A DNA stretch of 64,000 bases from Promethearchaeati archaeon SRVP18_Atabeyarchaeia-1 (GCA_037308085.1 CP147779.1:480001-544000); one strand, 5' to 3'; positions 7,178 through 8,468 are shown, counted from the stretch's first letter. The notes: a model not told the origin generated them from the sequence alone. Made by a program: numbers and translations.

Positions 7178-8468
7178 GTGGAAGAATACGCTGTCAAAGA
7201 CTTAAGCCTAGCACCTCAAGGACATAGCAAAATAGATTGGGCGGAATCTCACATGCCAGTTCTCATGATAATTCGTGAACGATTCGCAAAAGAGAAGCCA
7301 CTGGCTGGCAAGAGAGTATCAGCTTGTCTTCACGTAACCAAAGAGACGGCCGTGCTAGCAAGGACGCTCCGCGCGGGTGGAGCCAAGGTCGCGCTGTGCG
7401 CATCCAATCCTTTGTCGACGCAAGACGATGTTGCAGCCGCTTTGGCCAACGAGGGTTTCAACGTATATGCTTGGAGAGGCCAGAATACAGAGGAATACTA
7501 TGATTGCGTAAACAACGTGCTTAACTACGCCCCTAATATCACTCTGGACGACGGGGCTGACCTGATCACAAGCATTCACACGAAACGCCAAGAACTATTC
7601 AAAGGAGTGATAGGTGGATGCGAAGAAACTACTACTGGCGTAATCCGACTCAGGGCCATGGCAAAGCAGAAAGTCCTCAAATACCCAGTGATAGCTGTCA
7701 ATGATGCACAGACCAAATGGTTCTTTGACAACCGCTATGGAACTGGGCAAAGTAGCATCGACGGAATATTGCGGTCGACCTCGGTTCTACTTGCTGGAAC
7801 AAAAGCAGTTGTCGCCGGGTACGGTTGGTGCGGGAGAGGGATAGCGACTCGATTGAAAGGTATGGGATGCAGGGTGATTATCTCTGAGGTAAACCCCCTA
7901 AGAGCTCTTGAAGCAGTGATGGATGGGTTTGACGTAATGCCCATGTCTGATGCAGCAAGACAAGCAAGACTTTTCGTGACGTCCACTGGAGACAAGAAGG
8001 TGATAACAAGGGAGCATATAGACGCCATGCAGGATGGATCAATACTTGCTAATGCTGGGCACTTCAACGTCGAAATATGGGTTCCTGACCTTGAGAGTTT
8101 GTCTGTAAAGAAGAGAGAGATAAGGTCGAACGTCGAGGAATACACCCTAAAGGATGGACGACGAATATACCTATTGGCTGAAGGGAGACTCGTCAATCTG
8201 GCTGCGGCTGAGGGGCACCCCAGTGTTTGCTTCAGCAGTAACTAGCTGGGCAACTGGACAGGTCATGGATATGAGCTTCTCAGATCAAGCTCTCTCAGCT
8301 GAATACCTAGCTAAGGAAGGAAAAACACTGAAACCAGAGGTCTACCTTGTTCCGGCAAGAATAGACAATCTCGTCGCCGAATTGAAGTTGGAGTCGATGG
8401 GGATCAAGATAGACAAACTGACAGAGGAGCAGAAGGAGTACTCGCAAGGATGGACTGAGGGGACATAG
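7178..8468 (+). CDS. ahcY: S-adenosylhomocysteine hydrolase, two exons (7178-8225 and 8260-8468), 418 aa after splicing
   Basis: [54 protein letters not shown]; the frame break is explained exactly by a 34-nt BHB intron. Confidence 0.95.
8226..8259 (+). other. BHB-type mRNA intron in ahcY (34 nt)
   Basis: h ACC/GGT, central helix CCAG/CTGG, bulges TG^T and AC^A, inner stem TTGC/GCAA plus CAGC/GCTG; excision joins G+AG into a Glu codon. Confidence 0.9.

Follow-up and report, generated by a model that had tools for sequence, protein, structure and literature searches.

BHB introns in the cbf5 pre-mRNA of Crenarchaeota were reportedly described by Watanabe in 2002, and the hBHBh' motif of archaeal tRNA and rRNA introns is said to have been treated by Marck and Grosjean in 2003. 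In the HAC1/XBP1 system of eukaryotes, an unconventional splicing in the cytoplasm, IRE1 cuts twin stem-loops, and tRNA ligase or RTCB joins the ends as part of a regulated stress response. For Haloferax volcanii, some of the substrates found reportedly lie in mRNA untranslated regions and not in coding sequence. The same organism shows EndA-dependent processing of BHB motifs in mRNAs, with substrates extending beyond tRNA and rRNA (PMC7714728), and splicing of the cbf5 introns, located in the pre-mRNA of a pseudouridine synthase of Crenarchaeota, has been demonstrated experimentally (Yokobori 2009, PMC2738675). The tRNA genes of Atabeyarchaeia and Freyarchaeia are very intron-rich (PMC11291895; bioRxiv 10.64898/2026.10.13.758758), and neither of these two reports mentions introns in protein-coding genes. 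A full-text literature search returned no paper linking BHB introns to ahcY or to Asgard protein-coding genes.

The locus described here is the adenosylhomocysteinase gene ahcY of an Asgard genome (G000), located in a window of 64,000 nucleotides, by which we mean the whole stretch of DNA analysed. Two further genomes serve as the main references: a congener (G001) and the closed genome (G002) of a sister genus within the same family. The resemblance to the cbf5 introns is readily apparent: in both cases a short non-coding insert lies in a protein gene, its boundaries fold as a BHB, the lineages possess a heteromeric endonuclease, and presence among relatives is patchy, implying gain and loss. 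In contrast to cbf5, the host is a central methyl-cycle enzyme, the lineage is Asgard, interruptions occupy at least six positions with up to four in one gene, and a 15-nt micro-exon occurs; moreover, the splicing of cbf5 has been demonstrated, whereas we infer that of ahcY. Assignment to the cbf5-type pre-mRNA introns was rejected, as the host is ahcY in an Asgard archaeon and not cbf5 in Crenarchaeota. Archaeal tRNA and rRNA BHB introns have exactly this motif, with identical cut positions and predicted enzymes, but the ahcY substrate is an mRNA, in which splicing sets the reading frame and codons constrain half of the motif. HAC1/XBP1 likewise involves a short, frame-shifting mRNA intron, joining by a tRNA ligase in the absence of a spliceosome, and a switch of the protein C-terminus; there, however, the nuclease is IRE1 acting on twin stem-loops, whereas for ahcY it is predicted to be EndA acting on a BHB.

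With a probability of roughly 0.88, positions 8226-8259 of the window represent an archaeal BHB intron in the mRNA of the only adenosylhomocysteinase gene of the genome. The gene and the elements of the motif are the following.

7178-8468, plus strand: ahcY, the sole adenosylhomocysteinase gene in the window
7178..8225, plus strand: ahcY exon 1, with a GTG start, 349 codons and a G, the first base of the split Glu codon
8217..8219, plus strand: outer helix h, 5' strand, ACC, exonic, partner 8261-8263
8220..8223, plus strand: central 4-bp helix H, 5' strand, CCAG, exonic (Pro and Ser codons), partner 8254-8257
8224..8226, plus strand: 5' bulge TGT, predicted cut between 8225 and 8226
8226..8259, plus strand: putative BHB intron, 34 nt, frame-shifting, with in-frame TAA/TAG
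8227..8253, plus strand: inner stem-loop h', TTGC/GCAA followed by TCAGC/GCTGG, loop AGTAACTA
8254..8257, plus strand: central helix H, 3' strand, CTGG, intronic
8258..8260, plus strand: 3' bulge ACA, predicted cut between 8259 and 8260
8260..8468, plus strand: ahcY exon 2, AG of the Glu codon, 68 codons, stop at 8466-8468
8261..8263, plus strand: outer helix h, 3' strand, GGT, exonic, partner 8217-8219

In profile searches, exon 1 corresponds to Pfam AdoHcyase and AdoHcyase_NAD, and it matches NCBIfam TIGR00936 (adenosylhomocysteinase) over model positions 1-347 of 416 with 556 bits. Read without splicing from the GTG at 7178, the frame breaks after EGHPS and runs into a stop at 8243-8245; the Pfam AdoHcyase match continues in exon 2 in a shifted frame (positions 225-285 of 299). 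Removal of 8226-8259 in silico yields a single 418-aa open reading frame containing GHPSEVMDMSF, in which the Glu codon is rebuilt from G and AG, and the predicted spliced junction reads ...CCCAGTG^AGGTCATG... (the caret marks the joint here and the cut in the motifs below). This reproduces the restoration of a 418-aa protein and of GAG proposed in the preliminary description of this DNA, whose motif coordinates are all correct, with each base pair that it lists present. Two 3-nt bulges on opposite strands surround a 4-bp helix at the exon-intron boundaries, as expected for a BHB, and flanking helices are formed on both sides, the outer one by the 3 bp ACC/GGT and the inner one by TTGC/GCAA (8227-8230 with 8250-8253) and TCAGC/GCTGG, that is, (T)CAGC at 8232-8236 with GCTG(G) at 8245-8249.

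The minimum free energy structure calculated by RNAfold for 8205-8275 reproduces this architecture, except that its register is shifted to give a central helix of 5 bp. The fold energy of this segment is ordinary for its composition (z = 0.67); consequently, the case rests on geometry and frame restoration and not on stability. To quantify the geometric argument, every deletion near the ahcY break was scored against an intact orthologue, and BHB geometry was checked afterwards. Fifteen deletions fell within 12 score units of the best, and only the top-scoring one has BHB geometry. Equally stringent BHB motifs number 16,801 in the whole genome, which is about 1.3e-5 per start/end pair. Taking the 15 near-best deletions together with this rate, the probability of a chance coincidence is about 2e-4, with recurrences in other lineages left uncounted.

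The 34-nt sequence has no second copy in G000 or G002, and a search of three ahcY loci (G000, G037 and G335) against Rfam gave no family at E <= 1. Two other classes of intervening element were considered and rejected. A group I or group II self-splicing intron is ruled out by size, 34 nt compared with a ribozyme core of hundreds of nucleotides, and by the lack of an Rfam match; an intein is ruled out because 34 is not divisible by 3 and stops occur in the upstream frame.

According to the proposed mechanism, the exonic ACC-CCAG of the transcript would pair with the intronic CTGG and the exonic GGT, forming the 4-bp helix, the two 3-nt bulges and the inner hairpin. A heteromeric endonuclease, the presumed product of two EndA-family genes, would cut after the second base of each bulge, between 8225 and 8226 and between 8259 and 8260. 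RtcB would then ligate the exons, forming the Glu codon GAG from G and AG and bringing exon 2 back into frame. The product would be the 418-aa enzyme; unspliced mRNA would give a 355-residue protein without the C-terminal 69 residues. Cleavage and ligation of the ahcY mRNA, the enzymes responsible, what becomes of the intron and a possible role in regulation are features that we infer from DNA.

Since the genome is metagenome-derived, an assembly or sequencing artefact has to be considered as the origin of the 34 nt. Logan contigs of three runs from two studies (X1, X2 and X5) hold the 34 nt unchanged; X1 and X2 may be source runs of the G000 assembly, and the X5 contig represents a variant strain that differs by three SNPs in other parts of ahcY. 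The metagenomes that contain the DNA of the window come from wetlands and freshwater sediment. In addition, the congener MAG LC30 carries a homologous insert with five substitutions. An artefact is, on this evidence, so improbable as to be negligible. DNA lacking the 34 nt, which the preliminary description had named as a sign of such an artefact, is contradicted by the contigs of X1, X2 and X5, and a second intact ahcY, which it had also envisaged, does not occur: G000 consists of one 2.81-Mb contig, and the gene is single-copy in this closed genome.

The congener G001, which carries the homologous intron, is Promethearchaeati archaeon LC30, taken by us from its name to be one of the Lake Cootharaba Group genomes. 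Two fragmentary genomes of that group have been placed in Atabeyarchaeia (PMC11291895), and the archaeon studied here is therefore probably a member of that class. In G002, ahcY is uninterrupted, encodes 418 aa and reads ...CCA AGT GAA GTA..., so that the intron is precisely absent. The search for ahcY was extended to 400 genomes of the phylum; the gene was found in 378, and 41 genomes with split matches were followed up. In 16 distinct Asgard sequences, an insert lies exactly between the G and the AR of the Glu codon after GHPS (site A). These inserts measure 31, 32, 34, 59 or 191 nt, and in all of them at least three of the four central pairs are formed; lengths of 31-32 nt are found in many Thorarchaeota (family f6), 59 nt in G335 and 191 nt in G037. 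G312 and G314 have a 20-nt intron at the same site. Altogether, site A is interrupted at the identical nucleotide in at least four Asgard families. The introns of the other families are unrelated in sequence to that of the window and share its geometry; a Pro codon CCT in place of CCC goes together with CTAG in place of CTGG on the intronic strand. Imperfect motifs also occur: in G323, G375, G331 and G334, the central helix contains G.A mismatches. When one genome each of 185,579 species was scanned for the exon context with an 18-48-nt gap, 13 Asgard records were obtained together with one Mycobacterium match, the latter lacking central-helix pairs. The Asgard affiliation suggested in the preliminary description is supported by the nature of the carriers, the congener being LC30 and the others Thorarchaeota MAGs.

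Covariation was assessed on a 14-sequence MAFFT alignment (A1), with the structure entered by hand for the pair counts. In this alignment, 94.2% of the cells are paired, compared with 82.1 +/- 1.7 in shuffles (0 of 500 reach 94.2%), and controls in which the structure was slid give 17-44%. Pairs 9-44, 15-41, 21-36 and 22-35 are changed on both sides, the second pair of the central helix is C-G in six sequences and U-A in six, and the outer helix (columns 5-7 with 49-51) is 97% paired. RNAalifold applied to the MAFFT alignment did not recover the BHB unaided, because indels misalign the inner stems. The helix changes in related ahcY genes are thus compensatory by comparison with the shuffles, which is the outcome sought by the covariation check that the preliminary description had proposed.

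The same set of sequences bears on rescue by the ribosome, either through a programmed frameshift or through a bypass in which the 34 nt are skipped during translation, as known from phage T4 gene 60. A stable hairpin in the gap and a stop codon soon after the break, both of which are features of known bypass sites, are present here. The Glu codon of GHPSEVMD, however, is split between G and AG (or AA) in 16 of 16 sequences, and only joining of the RNA recreates it. There are, moreover, no matching take-off and landing codons around the gap. Finally, the BHB geometry is unchanged across gaps of 20 to 191 nt, which fits the ruler of an endonuclease and fits hopping less well. We therefore regard ribosomal rescue as very improbable, and the preferred reading remains a BHB intron removed from the RNA.

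Comparison with the congener also shows how the two exons and the insert evolve. In the spliced frame, exon 2 has a pN/pS of 0.065 at a pS of 0.87, and exon 1 a pN/pS of 0.118; pS across the exons is 0.71-0.87, with synonymous sites near saturation. In the two wrong frames of exon 2, pN/pS exceeds 1. The intron itself is identical at 29 of 34 positions (85%, five substitutions), while third codon positions are 49% identical, indicating that the insert is itself constrained; one inner-stem pair that is U-G in G000 is U-A in G001. These values are difficult to reconcile with a dead or dying gene, broken by a small palindromic insertion that is not removed from the RNA. The DNA as it stands does encode a truncated 355-aa product, and frameshifting inserts without a canonical BHB are found in the RtcB gene of a relative (G037) and likewise in a RuBisCO-like gene of G000 (both described below). 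Against gene death stand the presence of only one ahcY in a closed genome, the strong purifying selection acting on exon 2 when it is read in the spliced frame, with pN/pS 0.065 at near-saturated synonymous sites, the conservation of the insert far beyond that of neutral sites, and the fact that at least four Asgard families are interrupted at the identical nucleotide, with changes that preserve the structure. The probability of this alternative is accordingly low, in the order of a few percent.

The machinery needed for removal of the intron as a BHB is encoded in the genome. G000 has two EndA-family genes, one resembling the catalytic half and the other the N-terminal/beta half of the fused enzyme, and an RtcB of 483 aa. 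Asgard archaea have been reported to possess a broad-specificity (alpha-beta)2 EndA (PMC5829648). ARAGORN predicts only 22 tRNAs in G000, 17 of them intron-bearing, which fits the 92-95% of intron-bearing tRNA genes reported for Atabeyarchaeia and Freyarchaeia (PMC11291895). These introns allow the cut rule to be calibrated: for tRNA-Arg(CCG), tRNA-Arg(TCG), tRNA-Arg(CCT) and tRNA-Ser(TGA), the ARAGORN boundaries correspond to a 4-bp helix cut after the second bulge base with an offset of 0, and in three of the four, tRNA-Arg(CCG), tRNA-Arg(TCG) and tRNA-Ser(TGA), the 3' bulge is AC^A as in ahcY.

Two tRNA genes were located by ARAGORN within the window; a different tRNA search gave no tRNA in it.

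13194-13318: tRNA-Arg(CCG) with a 30-nt intron at a non-canonical position (ARAGORN with the intron option)
27700-27804: tRNA-Arg(CCT) with a 27-nt canonical BHB intron, CTCC TA^A ... GGAG AG^A

Site A is one of at least six positions at which ahcY is interrupted across Asgard lineages, with up to four interruptions per gene. In family f9, which probably corresponds to Lokiarchaeia, four genomes have a 32-nt strict BHB (ATTG AA^A ... CAAT AA^A) between GHFDIE and IPTKEL. Once this BHB is removed, GHFDIEIPTKELY is obtained, as in intronless relatives, and the inner stem of the BHB shows compensatory changes. In families f18 and f7, BHBs of 23-30 nt (TGGG AA^A ... CCCA AA^T) lie between TKWE and FDN. 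The ahcY gene of G037 is interrupted three times and that of G312 four times, by 28, 32, 30 and 20 nt, with a 15-nt micro-exon; after the four removals, G312 has a 428-aa open reading frame that is 68% identical to AhcY of G002. The recurrent sites TKWE (about residue 182) and GHPS (residue 349) flank the NAD-binding domain, AdoHcyase_NAD corresponding to residues 185-345 and window positions 7730-8225 to AhcY residues of about 185-349, and both lie where the peptide motifs are best conserved. In G312-G314, the interruption that follows GGCEE also forms a good hBHBh', from which the canonical cuts excise 30 nt in frame. This canonical excision does not restore EETTTG, for which 28 nt would have to be removed. 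The misfit in G312 means that the canonical rule does not explain every ahcY interruption.

Two side observations concern the same gene. After the removals, AhcY of G312 (L044, contig C81) retains 10 extra residues (TLESSSTGQ region) after the GH of GHFNVE, near the f9 site, and these could represent a fifth, in-frame and stop-free intron. In G243, a member of f9 (L211, contig C22 10500-30499; L047), about six extra copies of the ahcY 3' end follow downstream in the same orientation over 20 kb, starting near aa 313, 343, 349 and 375, close to intron sites. Between the copies are ORFs of unknown nature and an nSTAND3 NTPase; no integrase was found among the ORFs of at least 220 aa in this array. 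Extra ahcY 3' copies are also present in G232 and G348.

As to other protein genes, the preliminary description had suggested that more such introns may hide as frameshifts elsewhere in the genome. All ORFs of G000 and G002 were compared by reciprocal whole-genome tblastn for collinear matches split by 8-600 extra bases, a design that introns common to the two genomes escape. The comparison recovered ahcY as a positive control and yielded no further clean BHB case in G000, so that the suggestion was not borne out there; one case was obtained in G002. This is a 53-nt strict BHB intron in an AmmeMemoRadiSam radical-SAM gene (about 918243-919414, minus strand; L102), with the motif GCCC AT^A ... 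GGGC AA^G, an outer helix of 4 bp and an inner one of 7 bp, placed in the CxxxCxxC region; the orthologue in G000 is intact (L209:409-1518:-). In G000, a RuBisCO-large-subunit-like gene (about 2712473-2713691, minus strand; L210) contains a 22-nt frameshifting insert relative to G002 between GHMDIAGA and WSYSPITG. The region can adopt a BHB-like structure whose central helix has only 3 bp, and cuts placed by the canonical rule are off by one base; the gene may be a pseudogene, the insert a non-canonical intron, or the sequence in error. The cbf5 gene of G000 is unsplit, with TruB_N in one 291-aa frame.

A genome-wide scan of G000 combining BHB motifs with ORFs passed about 500 candidates equally at the correct offset and at every shifted control offset, showing that an ORF-only filter is powerless. 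A junction-peptide search for introns common to G000 and G002 gave no convincing one; its matches were mostly neighbouring genes or conserved non-coding frames (rpl24 beside rps4e; an MNT-HEPN pair). In the intron-rich relatives, a GcvT-like control gene is intact, and a NadA control shows no extra length, with one in-frame TGA or TAG in each of three genomes and, in G313, a distribution over two contigs. The NadA-like matches with an in-frame stop are these.

G312 C2:29466-30371: NadA-like match
G139 C11:55120-56034: NadA-like match
G313 C34:6568-7155: NadA-like match

The recurrence found is therefore one within ahcY across Asgard lineages, and other genes have barely been sampled. Among the RtcB genes, that of G313 contains about 1.4 kb of inserted in-frame sequence within a single 973-aa frame, which looks like an intein. 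In G037, RtcB (L214, 1450048-1454307, minus strand) contains a 29-nt frameshifting insert between PDS and HQGYG, in which no canonical BHB was found. Together with the one G312 ahcY interruption that departs from the canonical cut rule, this insert gives some weight to the idea that EndA and RtcB are not the agents that remove the 34 nt, and that self-cleavage, a different ligase or some unknown nuclease, for example, acts in their place. The motif in the window, in contrast, conforms to the textbook form of an EndA substrate, its geometry and its 3' bulge ACA recur in tRNA introns of the same genome, and 34 nt, without any Rfam family, is far below the size of a group I or II ribozyme. Removal by a different agent thus appears quite unlikely, and EndA with RtcB remain the favored enzymes.

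Collectively, the central proposal of the preliminary description, a BHB intron removed by EndA and RtcB in an Asgard ahcY, is supported by the geometry, the absence from the sister genus, the compensatory changes and the signature of selection, as well as by the DNA in other assemblies, the EndA and RtcB genes, and tRNA introns obeying the same cut rule. Archaeal transcription and translation are commonly regarded as coupled, which counts against the splicing reading, as ribosomes would meet the unspliced message. The unexpected feature is the repeated use of one gene, ahcY, as an intron host across Asgard lineages. A broader proposal, which we regard as speculative and rather less probable than not, is that ahcY is a recurrent, selectively maintained host of tRNA-type introns throughout Asgard archaea, and that mRNA splicing by EndA and RtcB is an ancient component of gene expression in these close relatives of eukaryotes, perhaps with a regulation similar to that of HAC1/XBP1 that would tie S-adenosylhomocysteine disposal to RNA-processing capacity.

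If the main reading is correct, tRNA-type splicing of mRNA would extend past the one classic archaeal case, cbf5. Annotation will list genes of this kind as pairs of ORFs or as pseudogenes with a frameshift, and metabolic reconstructions based on Asgard MAGs are distorted as a result. The interruption of ahcY at several sites, with micro-exons, across Asgard classes amounts to a split-gene architecture without a spliceosome, and the gene offers a concrete case for the gain and loss of BHB introns and for splicing alongside coupled transcription and translation. An obligatory BHB intron in a single-copy ahcY would mean that, in the archaea nearest to eukaryotes, the tRNA-splicing machinery is used to decode ordinary mRNAs.
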